64,000 bases of DNA, taken from contig NC_072731.1 in the NCBI RefSeq assembly GCF_026930045.1, forward strand, positions 138,010,156-138,074,155, written 5' to 3'. Shown here piece after piece: positions 10,386 to 63,744 of the stretch. A model generated the notes under the pieces. That model was not told the DNA's origin. It ran no database searches and worked only from the letters and a program-made list of their open reading frames with translations. Numbering within the stretch: the stretch's first letter is position 1; every line of letters begins with the position of its first letter. Origin of the DNA: Uloborus diversus. Taxonomy: Eukaryota. Made by a program: the position numbers and the translations under genes.

Positions 10386-11120
10386 AATGTTCCAAAAATG
10401 GAACATCATATTTAAGTGAAAATTTTCCCAAGAAATAACGTTAAAATAAACAAGTTTTTTTTAACACAGTTTAGTCTTATTTCAAAGTATTTTTTGATTT
10501 CCTGCTTGATTGTTTATATGTTTTCAATTATTTATTGCGATTTTTCAAAGATGAGTGTTTTTTTAGCTTTTTGCAACTTTTTCTTATAAAATTTACCAAA
10601 AATTGACTTTTTCAGAAAATGTGATGATCATTATTATAGTTGAGAAAAATACTTCAATGTACGATTTTAAAATGCTTGTCGAAATGTACATTGATATTTC
10701 CGAAAAGTGTGCCCCTTCAAAATAGCATGTTCCAATTTTGGAACATTGGCGCTTTTAGGGAGTCAAATTTCCAAGAAGTAAATCGTTCGACTTCCAAGGG
10801 GAAATTTCATTTTTCGTAATATATGTTTCTTTTTTTTTCTCATTTTGAATGTACTCTGATGTAGATGTTGGCAAAACCAAGTTTATATTTTGAAAGGATA
10901 TGACGTTTCGTTAGCAAAGAAAATAATAACAGTCTTCTGTTTGACGGACTATATGGCTCCGAATCCACACCTGCTCGGACAGCTGCATTGTCACGTGATA
11001 ATAAAAAATAATATAAGTGAGCGTTTTATTCTTCATATTTTAAATGCAGTTCAATAATTCGCTAGCTTTGCTTTCGAGCGAAACGAAATTCTGTTTGACG
11101 TATACCAACTGTTCATAAAT

Positions 11121-11445
11121 TGATTCGGCGATATTCTAAGTGGACTGTAAGTTTTGTTTTCAGTGATGACTAATTGCTTTAAGAACATGATTCCAGTAAT
11201 CATTTCCAGCTAACCAATATAGCTGTTCAAAATTTAGGGACGAATACCCTGTTGCAAAAGAAAGCTATGCTCCGTAGCAGGAGCTCTACAAAAACACAAC
11301 CATATTCGAGCAAGTCGGCGAACAAGCTGAAACCAAAAACAGAGCTAGGCGCGCAGGCTGCGTTGAATTGTTCTTCGGAGGCTCGCAGACGATTTCTAGA
11401 GTCCGTTAAACAATCAAGGCTTGTCTGTAGCGTAATGACGCAACA
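11121..11445 (-). repeat. 3' LTR of the BEL/Pao element (325 bp)
   Basis: It matches 16953..17312 with about 1 substitution plus one 35-bp indel. On the plus strand it starts tgattcggcg and ends cgcaaca (TG..CA in element sense). Confidence 0.9.
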
Positions 11446-11590
11446 TACCGGCCCCCGTTGAGATGTCTCAACATGCAATGAGATTACAATCTGGACTAAA
11501 TATATAAACTAAGATAAATTCAAGTATGCAAAATAATATAAGACAAAAATACAAAATAATAAGAAAATTTGAAATTTCCATGAATACTAA

Positions 11591-14500
11591 TTATTCGTTC
11601 CCTTCTAGGGGAAGAGGGCAAATTTTCGATATTGCTCTTTTTACTACACCTGATAGTGTTTTAATTTCTAGCACTCTAACCTTTCCATCAGAACCAGCAA
11701 TGATCTTAAGGATTCGACCTAGAGACCATTTACAAGGGGGTAAATTTTCATCTTTAATGATCACCATGGTTCCTTCTTTAAGATTTTTCTTTTCAATGAA
11801 CCATTTATTTCGTTGTTGAAGGTGGTTAAGATAATCGTGCTGCCATCTTTTCCATAGATTTTGTGACATTTTAGTGATTTTTTGCCAACTAGACAGCTTG
11901 TTATCACTAATACTACTGATATCTGGTTCCACTATCGACGTTATTGGACGACCTATCAAGAAATGAGCTGGCGTTAAGACTTCAATTTCGTTAGGGTCCG
12001 ACGACAAAGGGAGTAAAGGGCGAGAGTTTAAAATGCCTTCTATTTGGACAATCAAGGTCCAAAATTCCTCTAAAGTTAAAGGGGAACTACCTACTGATCT
12101 TTTGAGGTGGTGTTTAAAAGATTTCACCCCAGCCTCCCATAATCCACCAAAATTGGGTGAGCGGGGAGGGATGAATTTCCAGTTAATAGCCTCAGAAGCC
12201 AAATAATCACTTAAAGTGTCGTCAGGATTTTTAACTAAGGCATGCAATTTTTTAAGCTCAGTATTTGCACCAACAAAAGTAGTGCCATTATCCGTTAAAA
12301 TTGTGGAACTTTTACCTCTGCGAGCGAAGAATCTTTTAAGGGTAGCAATGAATGATTCTGATTTTAAATCAGTTACTATATCTAAATGTATTGCCTTGGT
12401 TGCGAGGCAAACGAATAATGCTACAAAAATTTTATTGAGAGTCCCTTTTCTTTGATTTTTGTATTTAATGGAGAAAGGACCACAAAAATCAATTCCACAC
12501 TCCTTAAAAGAGGGACTAGGGTTTACTCTTTCTGAGGGTAAATTTCCCATTATTTGATTGATTCCTCTAGGTTTATTTCTAAAACAGACAAAACACTTAT
12601 GAACAATTTTACGAGCTAGTGATCTTCCATTAATTATCCAATAACTTTGCCGGACATGATGCAATAAAGCTTGTGGTCCAACATGAAAAAACTTCTTGTG
12701 AAAATATTCAAAGATAATTTCACTCAATTTGTGGTCGTGGGGCAATACAATTGGGTGTTTTTTCTCATAGCTAAGATTAGAATGGTCCAAGCGACCTCCT
12801 ACTCGAAGTACACCTTCTGGATCTAAAAAAGGGTTCAAATACTTTAATTTACTCTTACCTGAAAGACAACTCTCATTTTTCAGATTTTGGATATCTTCAG
12901 CAAAACAAATCGTTTGTACCTGTTTAACCAAACAGGTTTCACTACTTTTAAGCTCTATTGCTGTCAGTGGTCCTGACCTTCTGCTATTTAAATTTCGACA
13001 GTTATAAACAAATCTAAAAATAAAACTAAAATTTCTAATTAGTTTCATAAAATTATTGCTTATAGAAAAAAGATCATTTCTAAAGTCATTAGGTGTTGGT
13101 GAAACAGCTAACTTTGTAAGTCCACACAGGCTGGTAGTTTCTTTAGTGGAAGTATCAGTAGAAATGTCCTTCATTTCTTTCAATATTATTACCTGGTCCT
13201 CTGAGGATAGATGAGGGCTTGCTGGTTCAGGGAAACTATTAGGACGAGTGAGAAAGTCCGGGCCATACCACCAAAGGGAATTGTCCACCAAGTCTGTAGC
13301 ATCTAAGCCGCGCGATATTAAATCACTGGGATTATCTCCAGACGCAATGTGGTGCCAATGAAAGTTCTGAGTATGGTGCTGAATTTTAGCCACCCGATTG
13401 CTCACAAATGTCTTTAGTTTCCATGGCGGGGTTTCGATCCATGCTAAGGCTATTTTAGAATCAGTATATAAATAGATACTTCCAATGTCCAGTTTTAAAG
13501 ATTTCAAAACTTTGACGACTAACTTGCTTAATAGCAGGCATGCTGAAAGCTCTAGTCTAGGTATAGTTAAGGTTTTCAAAGGAGCTACTTGAGATTTGCT
13601 ACTTATTAAGTGGCAAGACGTTTTGGAAGGAGATGAAGATTGGAGGTAGACAGTGGCTCCAAAGGCAATAGATGAGGCATCTGCAAATCCATGCAACGCT
13701 ATAAGTTTTGCACACGGGGTCAAAATGTAACGACTAATGGTCAAACTTTCTAAAGATTTCAAAGAGTTTGTGAAACGTATCCAGGAATTCGCTATAAAAT
13801 CTGGAACCGGGTCGTTCCAGTCTAATTTTAGTTTCCAAAGTTCTTGCATGAAGGTTTTGGCTCTGGTTATCACGGGTCCAATTAGACCAAGGGGATCGAA
13901 GAGTCGCACAATGTCCGAGAGTATAGTCCTTTTAGTTAATTTTTCACGGTGTTCAATTTTTACCTTGAAAGTGAAGACATCCGGTGTGGGTTTCCAAGTC
14001 ACTTCTAATGCTTTAGTTTCATTCTCTAAGAAAGAATGATTTTCCGAAGATCCATTATTGACACAATCAAGTAATTTGGAATCATTTGCTTTCCACTTAT
14101 GAAGGTGCATTCCAGCAGACTTCAAAAGTTCTATTAGTTGGCATTGAAGTTCTTGTGTAGCTTCAATACTGTCTTCTCCACTTAAGACATCATCCATGTA
14201 ACAATCATTCTTAAGGACTTCAGATGCTTTGCTAAATTTTTCTATTTCTTCTTCAGCCAGCTGTTTCAAAGTTCGTATTGCTAAGAACGGTGCGCACGAT
14301 GTGCCGTAAGTAACGGTGTTTAACTCAAAGGTGTCTACCGGGCCTTTAGGATCGGATTTCCATAAAATTCTCAATAATTTTCTTTGTTCTGGATTTATCA
14401 ATATTTGTCTGTACATCTTTTCGATGTCAGCGAGAAACACGAACCTATGTTTTCTAAAACGAATCATTATTTCGTAAAGCTCTTCCTTAACTTGACCCTT

Positions 14501-16885
14501 AAAAAGAATATCATTCAATGATTTACCATTCGTTGAAGGGCTTGAAGCATTAAATACTACACGGAGCTTGGTTGTAGGATTTTCAGAACGGTAAACTCCA
14601 TGATGTGGAAGATAGTAACAACCTGCATCTTCTTTGTTAACCTTGATTTTTGTCATGTGACCAAGAGTTTCGTACTCATCAATAAACTTATAATAAAGTT
14701 CTCGCATTAGGGGAGTTTTCTCCAGACGATTCCACAACTGCTGCAAACTTTTCTCAGCAACTAATTTTGAATCCCCTAAAACTGTCGGATCTTCTTTTAG
14801 CGGCATAGTAACTACGAATCTTCCTGTGTTCTCTCTGTGATATGTTTCTAAAAAATGATTTTCGCATTTTTTTTCTTCGTCACTGAGAGGAATAAATTCG
14901 TCCTCAACACTTTCTATTTTCCAAAATTTTTGAAGATTTTCTTCTAATACATCAGTTTGTTTTGTTAAACCGCAAAATGTCTGCAAACCTTGATTCCCTA
15001 GTGATCCGGAAACTATGTACCCGAAGACGGTGTTTTGAAATATTAAGCTAGAAACTTTTTGTTTTTCAAATTTTAGGATTTCGAAAAAAAGTTCAGCTCC
15101 AATAAGCACGTCTATTCTAGCAGATTTTCCAAAGTTAGGATCGGCTAGTTCTATATCTTTTGGTATTTCTAAATTGGTTGTATCCAGATCATTTGAAGGT
15201 ACCCAAGTTGTTATTTTTGGAACAATGTAGAATTCAATTGTTTTACTAAAAGAATTATCTTTATTTGAGATCCGTATTTGCATTTTGGATTTTATACTAG
15301 AAACGGTTCCGTTGATCCCCGAAACTAATACTTTAGCTTTCTTCTTCTTCCCTGATAAAGACTGAGCTAATCTATTCGTGGTCAGACTTAATTGACTTCC
15401 ACAATCTAAAATTCCACGAACTGGAATTCTAACGCCGTTTAAATCTTCCACATAAATAACAGAAGTTGCTAACAACACCTTATTTGAAATATGTTCTGAT
15501 CGAGAAATCTCGCTGCATAACGATTGCGAAATTTCAGACGATACGTCATTCCTAGTGCCGGGATCCTTTGAAGCGGAAGGAATATCCTTTTTATTTATGA
15601 GGCTATTACTGTCGCTATTTAGACTACGATTCCTAATTGGCGCCAAGGACTCCTTTCGATGAAGCAAACTATGATGTTTTTTCGAACAGATGGAACAAAG
15701 GAATGTTGATGGGCACTGCACAATTTTATGTTTAGTACTCAAACAATTCAAACAAAGATTAAGTTTTTTAGCTGTTAAATATCTATCATATCCTTCTAAT
15801 TTTAAGAATTTATCACACTTGAAAATAGAATGATTAGGTGATTGACAAACACTACAACTTGTATTTCTTTCACCGGCATTATTCTTCACCATCAAATTCT
15901 TAAATTTTTGGTTCTTTTCGTATGTTAAATTCTTAGATTTTACGGTTGCATTGCTATGTAAATTTTCTAGAACTAAGCATCGTTTTTGCAAAAAGGCTAT
16001 AAATTCTTCCCAAGCGGGTAATTCCGTGGAGGTCAATGAAAGTTCAAACTGCTTTCTCGTTTCTTTATCTAATTTTTTGAGAATGTTATTGATTAACATT
16101 ACTTCGGAAAATTTATTAAGTTCCAAACCTATCGTTTTGAGAGCCCGAATGTGCTTAAGACATCCGTCAACTACCGATCTTAGACTTTTTGCTGGATCTT
16201 GATTTGACACTTCCATTAATAATATTTCATTCATGTGAGAATTTACAATGAATCTTTTATTTTCAAACCGATCTTCTAAAGCCTTAAAGAGGGATGTATA
16301 AGAATCATCTTTACTAACTACCTCTAATGCACTATGACTTAAAGTCGATTTCAAATAATATAATTTCTGCGTGTCATTTAAGCTGTCATTAGAATCTATT
16401 AATGTGAGAAACTGCTCCCTGAATGTGTACCACTCCTGATAACTTCCAGAAAATTTTGGCAATGGCATTTCAGGCAATTTAAAATTAACATTCGAACTAA
16501 ATATTTTGTAATTATTCAAATCATTTCGATTTTCAATTTGATTACTACTAGTATTAGAAAGTAAGAATTTTCTCAGTCTTACCTCTAAGTTTTCAGAGAG
16601 TTCTTCAATTTCTGTGAAGACGGCTAGGTCCTTTTCTAAGTCTGATTCATCAATTACCACTTCAAAATATTTTAATTTTAATTCATCCAAATTTGAAACG
16701 AGCTTGTGCAGATTATCCAATTTCACTTGATATTCCAAGGAATCCTTTGTTCTTCCATCCTCAAGGAATGTTGCTATTCTTGTTATTTGTCCTTTGTAAG
16801 CACCTCTTTGGCGATTAAGAGTCACTAATTGTTCTTTACTCTGACGAGTAACTATACTATCTTTTTCCGTCATGATTAGTAACAA
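11591..16885 (-). CDS. BEL/Pao Gag-Pol polyprotein, 1764 aa, uninterrupted
   Basis: Motifs in the protein (aa position in brackets) are as follows. CCHC knuckles CSVCQSPNHSIFKC / CLNCLSTKHKIVQC (aa 344-391). Protease LDCGSQ (D494). RT core with YMDD (aa 896-899) and FLADIEKMYRQI. RNase H FADASS ... TDSKIALAWI (aa 1066-1150). Integrase zinc finger HH...C..C (aa 1409-1434) and DDE residues in GIDFCGP (D1465), LTDNGTTF (D1532) and E~1565. This domain order and the Pao-type protease are diagnostic of BEL/Pao rather than Gypsy or Copia. Confidence 0.92.
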   Translation of the reverse strand: MLLIMTEKDSIVTRQSKEQLVTLNRQRGAYKGQITRIATFLEDGRTKDSLEYQVKLDNLHKLVSNLDELKLKYFEVVIDESDLEKDLAVFTEIEELSENLEVRLRKFLLSNTSSNQIENRNDLNNYKIFSSNVNFKLPEMPLPKFSGSYQEWYTFREQFLTLIDSNDSLNDTQKLYYLKSTLSHSALEVVSKDDSYTSLFKALEDRFENKRFIVNSHMNEILLMEVSNQDPAKSLRSVVDGCLKHIRALKTIGLELNKFSEVMLINNILKKLDKETRKQFELSLTSTELPAWEEFIAFLQKRCLVLENLHSNATVKSKNLTYEKNQKFKNLMVKNNAGERNTSCSVCQSPNHSIFKCDKFLKLEGYDRYLTAKKLNLCLNCLSTKHKIVQCPSTFLCSICSKKHHSLLHRKESLAPIRNRSLNSDSNSLINKKDIPSASKDPGTRNDVSSEISQSLCSEISRSEHISNKVLLATSVIYVEDLNGVRIPVRGILDCGSQLSLTTNRLAQSLSGKKKKAKVLVSGINGTVSSIKSKMQIRISNKDNSFSKTIEFYIVPKITTWVPSNDLDTTNLEIPKDIELADPNFGKSARIDVLIGAELFFEILKFEKQKVSSLIFQNTVFGYIVSGSLGNQGLQTFCGLTKQTDVLEENLQKFWKIESVEDEFIPLSDEEKKCENHFLETYHRENTGRFVVTMPLKEDPTVLGDSKLVAEKSLQQLWNRLEKTPLMRELYYKFIDEYETLGHMTKIKVNKEDAGCYYLPHHGVYRSENPTTKLRVVFNASSPSTNGKSLNDILFKGQVKEELYEIMIRFRKHRFVFLADIEKMYRQILINPEQRKLLRILWKSDPKGPVDTFELNTVTYGTSCAPFLAIRTLKQLAEEEIEKFSKASEVLKNDCYMDDVLSGEDSIEATQELQCQLIELLKSAGMHLHKWKANDSKLLDCVNNGSSENHSFLENETKALEVTWKPTPDVFTFKVKIEHREKLTKRTILSDIVRLFDPLGLIGPVITRAKTFMQELWKLKLDWNDPVPDFIANSWIRFTNSLKSLESLTISRYILTPCAKLIALHGFADASSIAFGATVYLQSSSPSKTSCHLISSKSQVAPLKTLTIPRLELSACLLLSKLVVKVLKSLKLDIGSIYLYTDSKIALAWIETPPWKLKTFVSNRVAKIQHHTQNFHWHHIASGDNPSDLISRGLDATDLVDNSLWWYGPDFLTRPNSFPEPASPHLSSEDQVIILKEMKDISTDTSTKETTSLCGLTKLAVSPTPNDFRNDLFSISNNFMKLIRNFSFIFRFVYNCRNLNSRRSGPLTAIELKSSETCLVKQVQTICFAEDIQNLKNESCLSGKSKLKYLNPFLDPEGVLRVGGRLDHSNLSYEKKHPIVLPHDHKLSEIIFEYFHKKFFHVGPQALLHHVRQSYWIINGRSLARKIVHKCFVCFRNKPRGINQIMGNLPSERVNPSPSFKECGIDFCGPFSIKYKNQRKGTLNKIFVALFVCLATKAIHLDIVTDLKSESFIATLKRFFARRGKSSTILTDNGTTFVGANTELKKLHALVKNPDDTLSDYLASEAINWKFIPPRSPNFGGLWEAGVKSFKHHLKRSVGSSPLTLEEFWTLIVQIEGILNSRPLLPLSSDPNEIEVLTPAHFLIGRPITSIVEPDISSISDNKLSSWQKITKMSQNLWKRWQHDYLNHLQQRNKWFIEKKNLKEGTMVIIKDENLPPCKWSLGRILKIIAGSDGKVRVLEIKTLSGVVKRAISKICPLPLEGNE

Positions 16886-16952
16886 AGTTCTTCAACTAGA
16901 AATATTTTCAATAAAAATTCAGGTTCAATTTACCTGCGGCTGACGTGACCAA

Positions 16953-17312
16953 TGATTCGGCGATATTCTAAGTGGACTGTAAGTTTTGTTTTCAGTGATG
17001 ACTAATTGCTTTAAGAAAAAAGACTTTATAAACTATTTACACATATTTACAACATGATTCCAGTAATCATTTCCAGCTAACCAATATAGCTGTTCAAAAT
17101 TTAGGGACGAATACCCTGTTGCAAAAGAAAGCTATGCTCCGTAGCAGGAGCTCTACAAAAACACAACCATATTCGAGCAAGTCGGCGAACAAGCTGAAAC
17201 CAAAAACAGAGCTAGGCGCGCAGGCTGCGTTGAGTTGTTCTTCGGAGGCTCGCAGACGATTTCTAGAGTCCGTTAAACAATCAAGGCTTGTCTGTAGCGT
17301 AATGACGCAACA
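16953..17312 (-). repeat. 5' LTR of the BEL/Pao element (360 bp). It contains a 35-bp segment that the 3' LTR lacks
   Basis: It is a direct repeat of 11121..11445. The extra 35 bp (about 17018..17052) includes TTTATAAA. Confidence 0.9.
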
Positions 17313-17325
17313 TAAATGTTAAAAA

Positions 17326-18729
17326 ATGTCTACAAGATTTCTTACTGTAGAACAAGCTGTGGCTTATTTAGAGACATTGTCAGATTCGGATTTGTCAGAT
17401 GTAGATATATGCCAATTACCCCTGATGAACTAGGCAATATCACTGAGGAAGAATAGATGTTGACAAAGATAAAATCCTACAATTTTTTGGTTTGTTGCTT
17501 TTCAGTGGGTACCATTCTGTTCCTTCTGAAGATATGTATTGGAGCAGTTTAGAAGATACATCTGTGCCAATTGTACCAACAGTTATGCCTCAAAATCGTT
17601 TTCGAAAAATAAAAAACAACTTTCATTTGATGGACAACCATGAATTAAAACAAAATGATAAACTAAGAAAAGTTTTCCCTATTTGCGAAGAATTGTGTAA
17701 AAACCCTCAACAATTTGGTGTATTTTATGAAAAATCGAGCATAGATGAATCTATGGTTTCCTATTACGGACGGCATTCATGTAAAATGTTTATTAGATGA
17801 AAACCAATAAGATTCGGCTTCAAAATTTGGATGCTGTGCTCTTCAAGTGGATACCCATATTCCATGGAGATTTATTCAGGCAAAAAAGAAGGATCCCCTG
17901 ATGTGCAATTAGGATCCAGAGTTGTAAATGATCTATTATCAGTTTTGACTGACACGTCTAAGCATGAAGTATACTTTGATAACTTTTTTACATCATATGA
18001 CTTATTTTCTCAGCTATCAAAAAAAAAAAAAAAAAAAGTGTACGAGCAACAGGAACAATTCGTGAAAACCGAACTGGCCATTGTCCACGGAAATTCAAAA
18101 AAGCCCTTTCTCAAGAAGATCGAGGAAATTTTGACTATCGATCTGATGGATCAGTGTACATGTGCAGCTGGAATGATAATGCAGTGGTTACAGTAGCATC
18201 TAATTGTTATACACATGAGCCACTTGCATCTGTAAAATGTTACTCAAATGCGCAGAAATGCAAGATAGATGTGCCACAACCTCATCTTATCAAGAGATAC
18301 AATGAAGGAATGGGGGGTGTGGACATTTAGGATAAACTTTTAGGCTGCTACAGACGTCATTTGAGGAGTAAAAAATGGTGGTGGAATCGAGTAATTTTTA
18401 GTGATGTTCTGAATGTTTCAGTTGTAGCTAGTTGATTACTTCATTGTGAGTTACACGAAGTCATGATGAAGCATTTAGAGTTCCGAAGAGGAATAACAAC
18501 TGACCTCTTAAAAAGAGAAGTACTAGTAGAAAGTCATCCAGGGCCTCGTTGTCATTTACATAAACGATCAAGAATGTCTGACGGACATTATATTGTATCT
18601 GCATCCCAAGGACGTTGCGCGGTGTGCAAAAAGATACGACTAAGAAATGTGACAAACGACTTCACCAGCAATGCTTCCTTTCATATCATGGGCATTAGAT
18701 ATTTCTGTATTGGATTTTCTGAATTCTGA
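17326..18729 (+). pseudogene. piggyBac-family transposase pseudogene with multiple frameshifts and stops and an N-terminal deletion
   Basis: Fragments at 17326..17430, 17492..17800, 17831..18196, about 18198..18330 and 18463..18729 lie in different frames. They contain an acidic N-terminus (LSDSDLSDVD) and the motifs FSGYHSVP, MPQNRFRKI..LMDN, YYGRHSCKMFIR, KPIRFGFKIWML, VRATGTIRENRTG, YNEGMGGVD and a C-terminal Cys-rich CAVCKK. These are hallmarks of piggyBac (PGBD) transposases. About 70 aa are missing between the N-terminal tail and the FSGYH block. Confidence 0.8.
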
Positions 18730-18995
18730 TATGTACATAAATGCAACTTAAAATATTATTTTTTCCGTAATAATGTATGCTAAGATAAAAACCGCATTCA
18801 AAACCTCTTAGTTTAAAAAAATTCTCTGAAAAAAAAAAACTTCATGCAAAGCGCCAATGTTCCAAAAATGGAACACACTGAAAAACATAGTAAAAATTTT
18901 TTTTTCTGGAAATTTTATTTTATTTCTGTATTTACTAGACATAAATAGACATAATTTCAAAAAATTACTCAAATTTGATCATCCGTCAATAGTTC

Positions 18996-62600: not shown

Positions 62601-63122
62601 CATATTTAAATTCATCAATTTCTCTGTTGGTACTTTTCGGTACACTTTGTTCGTCAGAGAAATTGACTTGAGGTGAACGAATTCCGGAACGCGAAGGGTA
62701 GATAAGTCCTGTCAAATTTTATCCGAAGATAAAAGCTATCAAGTTTGATACAAGATATGTTTTTAAGTTCTGCATTAAAAATACAATATGTTGATAGTTT
62801 TGTCTTGAAAATATTGAGAGAAAAAATGAAGTTTAAGATTGTTTAACAAACAATCCCCACTTTTCAGAAGGTACCCCCACTCCAATTCCCCGACGATTTT
62901 GTGATTAGGAATGAAACTACTAGATTATTTCATAATTTTTCAAAAATTTATAACTGTGCATTTGTTATGCTGTTAACCATGCTATTTGTCATTAGAAATT
63001 CAAAAAAAAAAAAAAAAAAAATCCACGAATGATTCTAAAATTGCTTGTATTATTGCTCTTAGATATGATATGGTATGCAATACTATAATAAAGAATTATA
63101 TTTTAGAAAAAATCACGGAAAA

Positions 63123-63420
63123 AGGATTCCGAAATTCTCGGAAACGTTTTTGAAAATTGTTTGGAGAATTCCGAAATACTCGGAAACGTTTTCGAAACTT
63201 TCATGAACCACAGCTGCACAGAATACTCAGAAACATTTCTGGAAATTACGGAAAGAGGATTCCGAAATACTCAGAAACGTTTCTGAAAATTACAGAAAGA
63301 GGATTCCGAAATACTCAGACACGTTTCTGGACATTACAGAAAGAGGATTCCGAAATACTCAGAAACGTTTTTGAAACTTTCATGAACCAGAGCTGCACGA
63401 TATACTCAGAAAAGTTTCCG
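63123..63420. repeat. Minisatellite of about 6 units of ~47 bp (aggattccgaaatactcagaaacgtttctgaaaattacagaaag)
   Basis: Direct reading. ORF 63157..63510 is a repeat artefact. Confidence 0.85.
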
Positions 63421-63744
63421 GATTTTTTTTACAGTGTACCAAGAAAACCTTTAACTTTTCCGCACAAAAAAGAAAACCTGCATCCTAAACCCAAAAACCC
63501 TCAGCCATAAAAAGTTATGATACCTAGTTTGCCCGCCAAATATCTGCCAAACTATCATCCTCCCTCTTCTCCTTTTTCATCACAACTACTTCCATTTGAA
63601 CCTCCTCCCACCTTCAACTCCTCAGAAATATTTATAGATCTTTTAAATTGTTTATCTTGTTTGGCGGGAAGCTTTTCAAAGTGAAGTGGTTGCTTGTTGA
63701 GCAAAAAGCTTCTCGCCAATTTACAACAGGGTTGTTTTTGATGA

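Follow-up and report, generated by a model that had tools for sequence, protein, structure and literature searches.

A recently inserted, structurally complete BEL/Pao element in the spider Uloborus diversus that is probably not autonomous

In the uloborid spider Uloborus diversus, the 64-kb stretch of DNA analysed here (the window) contains a full-length BEL/Pao element of 6192 bp (11121-17312, minus strand). The most likely reading is that its insertion, into a decayed piggyBac-like element, is recent, and that the copy is itself decaying and probably not autonomous. Its autonomy is doubted because a glutamate replaces an invariant glycine of the reverse transcriptase (RT) and because the 3' LTR is without a 35-bp segment that is present in the 5' LTR. 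The features of the element are as follows, in order along the forward strand.

11116-11120, strand not applicable: left copy of the target-site duplication (TSD), TAAAT, the same as 17313-17317
11121-11445, minus: 3' LTR, 325 bp, TG..CA, without the 35-bp segment; direct repeat of 16953-17312
11446-11460, minus: PPT-like G-rich block, in element orientation CAACGGGGGCCGGTA followed by TGT; motif common to relatives
11457-11472, minus: hairpin GTTGAGA-ca-TCTCAAC directly 5' of the PPT block; MFE -7.1 kcal/mol, z = -3.0
11591-16873, minus: single gag-pol ORF, 1760 aa from ATG, free of stops and frameshifts, with its stop codon at 11591-11593
11612-11890, minus: C-terminal DUF5641, aa 1662-1754 (Pfam PF18701, E = 1.4e-33)
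12134-12490, minus: integrase catalytic core, D1462, D1528 and E1580, all three columns being conserved across 38-39 of the 39 outgroups
12566-12736, minus: integrase zinc-binding HHCC domain, aa 1380-1436 (Pfam PF17921, Integrase_H2C2, E = 4.8e-8)
13457-13936, minus: Pao-specific Peptidase_A17 region with RNase H, aa 980-1139 (Pfam PF05380, E = 4.1e-47)
13979-14506, minus: RT palm and fingers up to the L-G-x-x-W hairpin, aa 790-965, with YMDD at 892-895 (Pfam RVT_1)
14003-14005, minus: codon 957, GAA, encoding Glu in place of the Gly of relatives (G957E), a change private to the window copy
15281-15442, minus: aspartic protease, aa 478-531, active-site D490 in LDCGSQ (weak match to Pfam Asp_protease_2; D490 invariant)
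15659-15856, minus: gag zinc knuckles, three Cys/His motifs, aa 340-405, from the alignment
16040-16453, minus: gag domain DUF1759, aa 141-278 (Pfam PF03564, E = 1.4e-25)
16933-16951, minus: candidate primer-binding site (PBS) TGGTCACGTCAGCCGCAGG, read from the sequence itself, 1 nt (16952) past the 5' LTR
16953-17312, minus: 5' LTR, 360 bp, TG..CA; direct repeat of 11121-11445
17018-17052, minus: 35-bp segment TTGTAAATATGTGTAAATAGTTTATAAAGTCTTTT, in the 5' LTR only (LTR alignment and motif scan)
17313-17317, strand not applicable: right copy of the TSD, TAAAT, the same as 11116-11120

Both LTRs run 5'-TGTTGCG...GAATCA-3' and form TG..CA direct repeats as in other BEL/Pao elements, and both ends are flanked by TAAAT, a perfect duplication within the 4-6 bp usual for the group. 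The LTR-LTR alignment contains one substitution (A11367 versus G17234 on the plus strand) and one 35-bp indel and is otherwise free of differences, which corresponds to 99.7% identity over 325 aligned bp, or a divergence of 0.3%; no further match to the LTR pair was found within the 64-kb window. The sole TATAAA of the LTR sits inside the 35-bp segment, according to a motif scan, and is hence absent from the 3' LTR. A second copy of this segment, which would be a possible source if it had been inserted, was not found in the 64-kb window. The pre-insertion (empty) site reads ...CATAAAT/GTTAAAAAATG..., its junction being also written ...TGTTCATAAAT/GTTAAAAAATGTC..., and belongs to a frameshifted piggyBac remnant, within which the element is nested.

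The coding capacity of the element is unbroken, as would be expected of an autonomous active copy. The open frame spans 11591-16885 on the minus strand. Counted from a TTG it comprises 1764 codons, and the first ATG, at 16873, gives a protein of 1760 aa. No other ORF in the 64-kb window (33% GC) reaches 130 aa, the runner-up having 126 aa, and no env-like ORF was found in the element. The matches to Peptidase_A17/Pao, DUF1759 and DUF5641 all exceed the Pfam cut-offs, and the Pfam and motif positions give the pol order of protease, RT, RNase H and integrase that is typical of BEL/Pao elements. In an alignment of 41 sequences, the zinc-knuckle residues C340, C343, H348, C374, C377, H382, C387, C393, C396 and H400 are invariant, as are H1392, H1397, C1427 and C1430 of the integrase, while the catalytic columns of RNase H (D1065 in DAS and D1138 in TDS) are conserved; every catalytic residue is intact in the window copy. 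The presence of DCG instead of DSG in the protease was considered as a possible defect and dismissed, Cys491 being common to the closest Uloborus relative and 3 of the 39 outgroups.

The assignment to BEL/Pao (Belpaoviridae, Semotivirus) and the structural completeness of the element are supported by its sequence. A protein search returned 200 matches, the best 120 of which all carry Pao-specific Pfam domains. The best match, XP_054711310.1 (LOC129220901), is from U. diversus itself and is identical at 1736 of 1760 positions (98.6% at the amino acid level). This protein belongs to the same family and length class as the window copy and has the same DCGSQ protease variant; since it differs by 24 substitutions and a 1-aa gap, it represents a different copy, known here as a protein. 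Among the matches listed, identity to relatives outside Uloborus is 34-46%, with the second-best match at 45%. A short-query protein search for near-identical fragments found none, the best reaching 52%, but it returned proteins of at most 355 aa and missed XP_054711310.1, so that it says little about copy number; a scan of IMG/VR for relatives found none. The family appears to be low-copy and distant from described relatives (about 45% identity or less, among the matches listed). In its TG..CA LTRs, its one gag-pol ORF, its PR-RT-RH-IN order and a PBS placed directly after the 5' LTR, the window element resembles the BEL/Pao superfamily at large, for example Achilles of Bactrocera oleae, a BEL/Pao element that uses tRNA-Tyr (PMC4580426). 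The G-rich block CGGGGGCCGGTA directly precedes the TGT of the 3' LTR and is a putative plus-strand primer of the kind found in BEL/Pao elements. Further examples of the superfamily are Pao, BEL and roo.

The structural claims of the original prediction were all upheld by exact re-analysis, in some cases with amendments. They comprised the BEL/Pao identity, with which both the Pfam profiles and the best 120 of the 200 homologues agree; the perfect 5-bp TSD; one uninterrupted frame of 1764 codons; the DCGSQ, YMDD, DAS/TDS, H..H..C..C and D-D-E motifs, all of which lie in invariant columns of the 41-sequence alignment; a TGG-initiated candidate PBS 1 nt from the 5' LTR, now established as a 19-mer; and an LTR pair distinguished by one substitution and one 35-bp indel. 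Hidden frameshifts, which would have spoken against that prediction, proved absent on exact re-translation, and the LTR divergence of several percent that would also have done so was likewise absent, at 1 substitution in 325 bp. The LTR lengths of 325 and 360 bp stand, while the description has been corrected: the element lies on the minus strand, and so the 360-bp copy is the 5' LTR. The tract described as G-rich and purine does abut the 3' LTR and is G-rich; it is not purely purine, although its motif is nonetheless conserved in relatives.

The same motif occurs in the same place in seven relatives, including CAACGGAGGCGGCA, CAAAGGGGGCGGTA and CAACGGGGGGAGTA. An equivalent of the adjacent hairpin, with compensatory changes in the stem, is found in seven other BEL/Pao elements, so that it is present in 8/8 of those examined; its distance from the LTR is 12 nt in the window, 11 nt in six of the seven relatives and 14 nt in one. 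No description of such a PPT-flanking hairpin as a cis-element was found in the literature. The candidate PBS shares its position and its TGGTC.....AGCCG frame with the tRNA-Tyr-type PBS TGGTCCTTCGAGCCGGA carried by relatives (ant, weevil and bee elements were examined), but deviates from this type at all five central bases. The tRNA 3' end that would fit the candidate is ...GGCTGACGTGA, whereas the canonical tRNA-Tyr end ...GGCTCGAAGGA pairs with it over just five contiguous bases. No tRNA or other RNA genes were found in the 64-kb window. When metagenomes were scanned for a tRNA gene ending in CCTGCGGCTGACGTGA, at least 120 matches were obtained, mostly on GC-rich contigs (median GC 0.61); they were attributed to chance and are uninformative, since ARAGORN recognized no tRNA and tblastn no BEL-like sequence among them. 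A literature string search with the PBS returned irrelevant primer matches only. We suggest, tentatively and with considerable doubt, that the hairpin may be a cis-element that positions the RNase H cuts for the plus-strand primer and, separately, that the changed PBS of the spider elements may reflect a lineage-specific tRNA-Tyr isodecoder or another primer.

An active copy would be expected to carry the ancestral residue at invariant positions, which, owing to G957E, the window copy does not. The 25 differences between the window copy and XP_054711310.1 were polarised against the 39 outgroups. Column 957 is Gly in 39/39 aligned outgroups and in XP_054711310.1, which has its own change, R1746T, at an invariant column. 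In a pairwise check of the full-length matches (the best 120 of 200), Gly was aligned at 957 in 117 of the 120, and in the remaining three the Gly of LGxxW is visible beside a misaligned column. Other changes derived in the window copy are I263N, A900E, A989V, I1281N and L1428F, and no outgroup has the window residue at any of these positions. The two copies can be told apart at aa 900, 904, 957, 989, 1036 and 1052, among other positions. Two of the 24 differences fall in columns that are at least 90% conserved, versus 3.3 expected at random. This lack of clear depletion at conserved columns is more in keeping with neutral decay than with selection for activity, and the window copy appears, from its sequence, to have begun such decay.

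The position of residue 957 was considered on an AF2 model of the RT fragment of the sister copy, XP_054711310.1 (pLDDT 76), whose top Foldseek matches are the HIV-1 and MoMLV RTs (E about 1e-6). In the model, the residue lies at the turn of a beta hairpin (E209-211/E214-217), which comes after the YMDD hairpin, one helix and one strand. L956-G957 would thus occupy the same topological place as the HIV-1 RT primer grip, which we take to be the beta12-beta13 hairpin with M230-G231; the comparison is one of how the two may work only. Compared with HIV-1 RT, there is an insertion of about 17 residues before the hairpin, and similarity is too low for a residue alignment past YMDD. No RT was retrieved when a profile of the RT region was searched against the sequences in PDB. 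An hhalign comparison with an approximate HIV-1 RT sequence aligned through YMDD only and with low probability; the equivalence with HIV-1 G231 hence rests on the AF2 topology and Foldseek. We know of no mutational data for any BEL/Pao RT. The conservation of the column, together with the analogy to the primer grip, indicates that G957E is probably a loss-of-function change, although a lone G-to-A difference could also be a sequencing or assembly error.

The claim that the element is very young holds, given one substitution per 325 aligned bp and the nesting in a frameshifted piggyBac remnant, whereas the claim of potential competence for transposition holds in part: the frame and catalytic residues are intact, but G957E, the lack of depletion at conserved columns and the 35-bp LTR difference count against it. 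That the copy is a fully autonomous and currently active master element is accordingly unlikely. The uninterrupted 1760-aa frame, the catalytic residues, the 99.7% LTR identity with its perfect TSD, the conserved PPT and hairpin, and a second near-identical intact copy in U. diversus would all suit such an element. They have to be weighed against the invariant RT position altered by G957E, several more derived non-conservative changes, differences not clearly depleted at conserved sites, a 3' LTR left without the only TATAAA by the 35-bp difference and an unmatched PBS. Moreover, only about 10 substitutions are estimated to have occurred since insertion (from the LTR divergence and the difference count), so that an unbroken frame would be expected even in the absence of selection and cannot be counted as a sign of it.

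The age of the insertion would be understated by the LTRs if they had been homogenised by gene conversion in an older element, as might be suspected from the 1.4% protein difference to the sister copy, which exceeds the 0.3% LTR divergence. This is very improbable: a single substitution has a very wide Poisson interval, 0.3% is statistically compatible with about 0.6% between the copies, the 35-bp indel was left unhomogenised, and both the frame and the TSD are flawless. A domesticated host gene, its ORF held open by selection, is scarcely credible; RefSeq does annotate a protein-coding locus, LOC129220901, for the sister copy, but the complete LTRs, TSD, candidate PBS and PPT, the nesting in another TE and the private radical changes at invariant columns in both copies all argue otherwise.

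For the element, the following life cycle is inferred from what is established for the BEL/Pao superfamily. The 5' LTR would drive the genomic RNA, from which a single gag-pol polyprotein would be made, to be processed by the aspartic protease that it contains. Minus-strand DNA would be primed by a host tRNA paired with the PBS beside the 5' LTR, and plus-strand DNA by the G-rich block beside the 3' LTR; the integrase would then attach the TG..CA ends to target DNA, generating the 5-bp duplication. The window copy may be copied in trans with proteins from another family member: its PPT and hairpin resemble those conserved in relatives and the ends of its LTRs are intact, the PBS being a candidate.

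A TE content of 65% is reported for the U. diversus genome (PMC12882449), spider genomes being TE-rich, and a young LTR element is to be expected there. The element is ordinary in that it adds a member to the known BEL/Pao kind. A copy cannot be called competent on the strength of an intact frame, catalytic motifs and near-identical LTRs; here, a probable loss-of-function change came to light when copy-specific changes were polarised against outgroups. The window copy can serve as a dated marker, recording a roughly sub-million-year insertion in a dead piggyBac element.

The BEL/Pao element, 6192 bp on the minus strand of the Uloborus diversus window, is real far beyond chance, as shown by structural re-analysis and by its frame, which is the sole ORF of at least 130 aa in a window of 33 % GC (the next longest has 126 aa). 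The features discussed below are the following.

Features of the insertion and its flank (window positions)
11121–11445, minus: 3' LTR, 325 bp
11446–11472, minus: hairpin and G-rich plus-strand primer block, flanking each other
11591–16885, minus: open frame
14003–14005, minus: codon 957 (GAA)
15403–15405, minus: aa 491 of the protease active site
16953–17312, minus: 5' LTR, 360 bp
17018–17052: extra 35-bp segment of the 360-bp LTR, from the LTR–LTR alignment
17326–18730, plus: piggyBac-like transposase remnant, frameshifted

The LTR pair was built from two direct-repeat blocks found in a repeat search, and both members have TG..CA termini, as read from their ends and their alignment; since the element is encoded on the minus strand, the 360-bp copy is the 5' LTR. 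Exact alignment reproduced the near-identity claimed in the original prediction, with one substitution (A11367 versus G17234, plus strand) and the one 35-bp indel. The perfect 5-bp TSD was also recovered, as TAAAT on both flanks, and the uninterrupted ORF holds at 1764 codons when counted from TTG; starting instead at the first ATG (16873), it encodes 1760 aa. No second copy of the element or of its LTR was found elsewhere in the window. The gag part of the ORF contains an imperfect 33-bp tandem duplication (15894–15964; 2.2 copies, 80 % matches), located in the linker that precedes the zinc knuckles. When the pre-insertion site was rebuilt by excising the element and one TSD copy, the element proved to have inserted 8 bp 5' of the ATG of the piggyBac-like transposase (Pfam DDE_Tnp_1_7, E = 6e-61), and is a nested insertion in a dead piggyBac-like element. 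At the far end of the window, a tandem array of a 44/88-bp unit (63109–63422; about 7 and 3.5 copies, 73–74 % matches) overlaps a 117-aa ORF with no Pfam match.

The protein matches the Pfam families DUF1759 (gag), RVT_1, Integrase_H2C2 and DUF5641, with a weak match to aspartic protease, and includes the Pao-specific region Peptidase_A17 (E = 4e-47). A protein database search returned 200 matches, 120 of them listed; all listed matches carry Pao-specific Pfam domains, and the named hosts among them are arthropods. The best match, XP_054711310.1 of U. diversus, is identical at 1736 of 1760 positions with one 1-aa gap, and is therefore another copy of the same family; the RefSeq 'gene' LOC129220901 that encodes it is accordingly a copy of the window retrotransposon. 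The second-best match reaches only 45 % identity. The U. diversus genome is reported to comprise 2.15 Gb, of which 65 % is TE (PMC12882449).

The predicted integrity of the catalytic motifs was borne out in an alignment of 41 sequences (the window protein, the sister copy XP_054711310.1 and 39 outgroups), in which the window copy retains all catalytic sites checked at columns conserved in 38–39 of the 39 outgroups.

Catalytic residues at conserved columns matched by the window copy
Protease: D490
RT: Y892, D894–D895
RNase H: D1065, D1138
Integrase: H1392, H1397, C1427, C1430, D1462, D1528, E1580

Across the alignment, none of the ten Cys/His in the gag knuckles varies. The protease active site reads D-C-G rather than the usual D-S-G; damage was considered and rejected, since the variant is common to the sister copy and 3 of 39 outgroups and is thus tolerated.

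Polarization of the 24 substitutions and one indel between the two copies against the outgroups assigned I263N, A900E, G957E, A989V, I1281N and L1428F, among others, to the window copy. Every column conserved in at least 36 of the 39 outgroups was then scanned in both copies, yielding eight deviations. Six are common to both copies and mostly conservative; the remaining two are radical changes, each confined to one copy: G957E in the window copy and R1746T in the sister copy (its residue 1745, which aligns with window aa 1746; Arg in 39/39 outgroups). The GAA codon at 957 is one transition away from GGA. Glycine occupies this column in the sister copy and in 39/39 outgroups, and a pairwise check aligned it in 117 of the 120 full-length matches listed; in the remaining three the column is misaligned, with a Gly of an LGxxW motif visible beside it. 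Only fragmentary remnants lack it (5 of 62 short spider proteins, one alignment shift allowed for).

In an AlphaFold2 model of residues 745–1005 (pLDDT 76), built on the sister-copy sequence with 18 aligned sequences, the YMDD hairpin is followed by a helix, a strand and a further beta hairpin, whose turn holds L956-G957. The PDB structures closest to the model are those of HIV-1 and MoMLV RT (E about 1e-6), and the topological counterpart of the L956-G957 hairpin in HIV-1 RT is the beta12–beta13 primer grip, in which M230 and G231 come within 4 A of the primer backbone and contribute to positioning the primer 3'-OH (PMC6462067; PMC3388302). Sequence methods stopped short of the hairpin and gave no alignment to the HIV-1 grip residues; on the model, G957 would be equivalent to the grip at the residue level. 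By this analogy, a Glu in this tight turn, beside the primer phosphates, is probably deleterious.

The G-rich tract predicted to abut the 3' LTR (CAACGGGGGCCGGTA|TGT) does adjoin it and matches the blocks of seven relatives, but it is not purely purine. Upstream of the 3' LTR, a hairpin of the form TT[G/A]A ... T[C/T]AA (CCAA in the relative L124) is present in 8/8 elements, namely the window element and the relatives L122, L124, L125, L127, L128, L130 and L131. It lies 11 nt from the LTR in six of the seven relatives, 14 nt in L127 and 12 nt in the window, where the spacer block CGGGGGCCGGTA (11446–11457, minus) has one extra C. The stem sequences differ, and pairs 3, 5, 6 and 7 show compensatory changes; RNAalifold returned a 7-bp consensus stem with double changes in three pairs, and in seven of the eight elements the hairpin is more stable than its shuffles (z -2.1 to -3.9). 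No earlier description of a PPT-flanking hairpin was found in the literature searched. This likeness to seven relatives supports the view that the window copy has the 3' cis-elements of its clade.

The candidate PBS, the 19-mer TGGTCACGTCAGCCGCAGG, was located 1 nt past the 5' LTR and compared with the same position in relatives. We assigned the tRNA types, presuming the tRNA 3' end sequences behind them.

PBS types among BEL/Pao elements
L125 (ant), L128 (weevil), L131 (bee): TGGTCCTTCGAGCCGGA, tRNA-Tyr type
L127: 11 nt matching TGGTCCTTCGAGCCGGA, tRNA-Tyr type
L001: one mismatch to TGGTCCTTCGAGCCGGA, tRNA-Tyr type
L124, L130 (fly and moth elements): TGGTGACCCCGA, tRNA-Trp-like
L122, L126 (two Araneus copies): TGGTCCGCAGAGCC, deviant
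Window: TGGTCACGTCAGCCG, deviant

PBS types thus vary among related BEL/Pao elements, and in the two spider families the central pentamer is deviant, CGCAG in Araneus and ACGTC in the window. Compared with the tRNA-Tyr type, the window PBS retains TGGTC and AGCCG but differs at every one of the five central positions. The tRNA end that it implies (...G72, A73, CCA, hence C1-G72) bears the hallmarks of eukaryotic tRNA-Tyr. No matching tRNA was found in the window or among the listed metagenome matches. The BEL/Pao element Achilles is primed by tRNA-Tyr (PMC4580426). Two related metagenome contigs (L026 and L071, GC 0.42) contain the 16-mer TCACGTCAGCCGCAGG of the window PBS, which was judged a chance or unrelated match, TGG and BEL-like coding being absent.

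The 35-bp LTR segment occurs once in the window and carries the only TATAAA of the LTR, while AATAAA and ATTAAA are absent from both LTRs. The 2-nt (TT) microhomology at its junction fits a deletion in the 3' LTR, and whether the segment is a TATA box or a poly(A) signal, the two LTRs would be functionally non-equivalent.

The predicted youth of the insertion is supported, at low precision, by an LTR divergence of K = 1/325 = 0.0031. With T = K/2mu and an assumed, not spider-derived, mu of 2–6 x 10^-9 substitutions per site per year, the age is about 0.26–0.77 Myr, widened to roughly 0.006–4 Myr by the Poisson interval on one event (0.025–5.6); gene conversion between the LTRs may also have produced their near-identity. 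Over the roughly ten substitutions that we estimate since insertion, the frame is expected to stay open by chance, so the open frame is no evidence of activity. The 24 substitutions hit conserved columns at about the chance rate, with a slight deficit at most (2/24 versus 3.3 expected at random in columns at least 90 % conserved, 4/24 versus 6.4 at 70 % or more, 7/24 versus 10.2 at 50 % or more), which, on these small numbers, agrees with weak or absent purifying selection after the split of the two copies. The BEL/Pao insertion in the window is genuine, young and complete, and belongs to a divergent, apparently low-copy spider family. Its proposed transposition competence is favoured by the intact catalytic residues, but opposed by G957E at an invariant RT column; autonomy of this copy is doubtful, while its mobilization in trans is possible.
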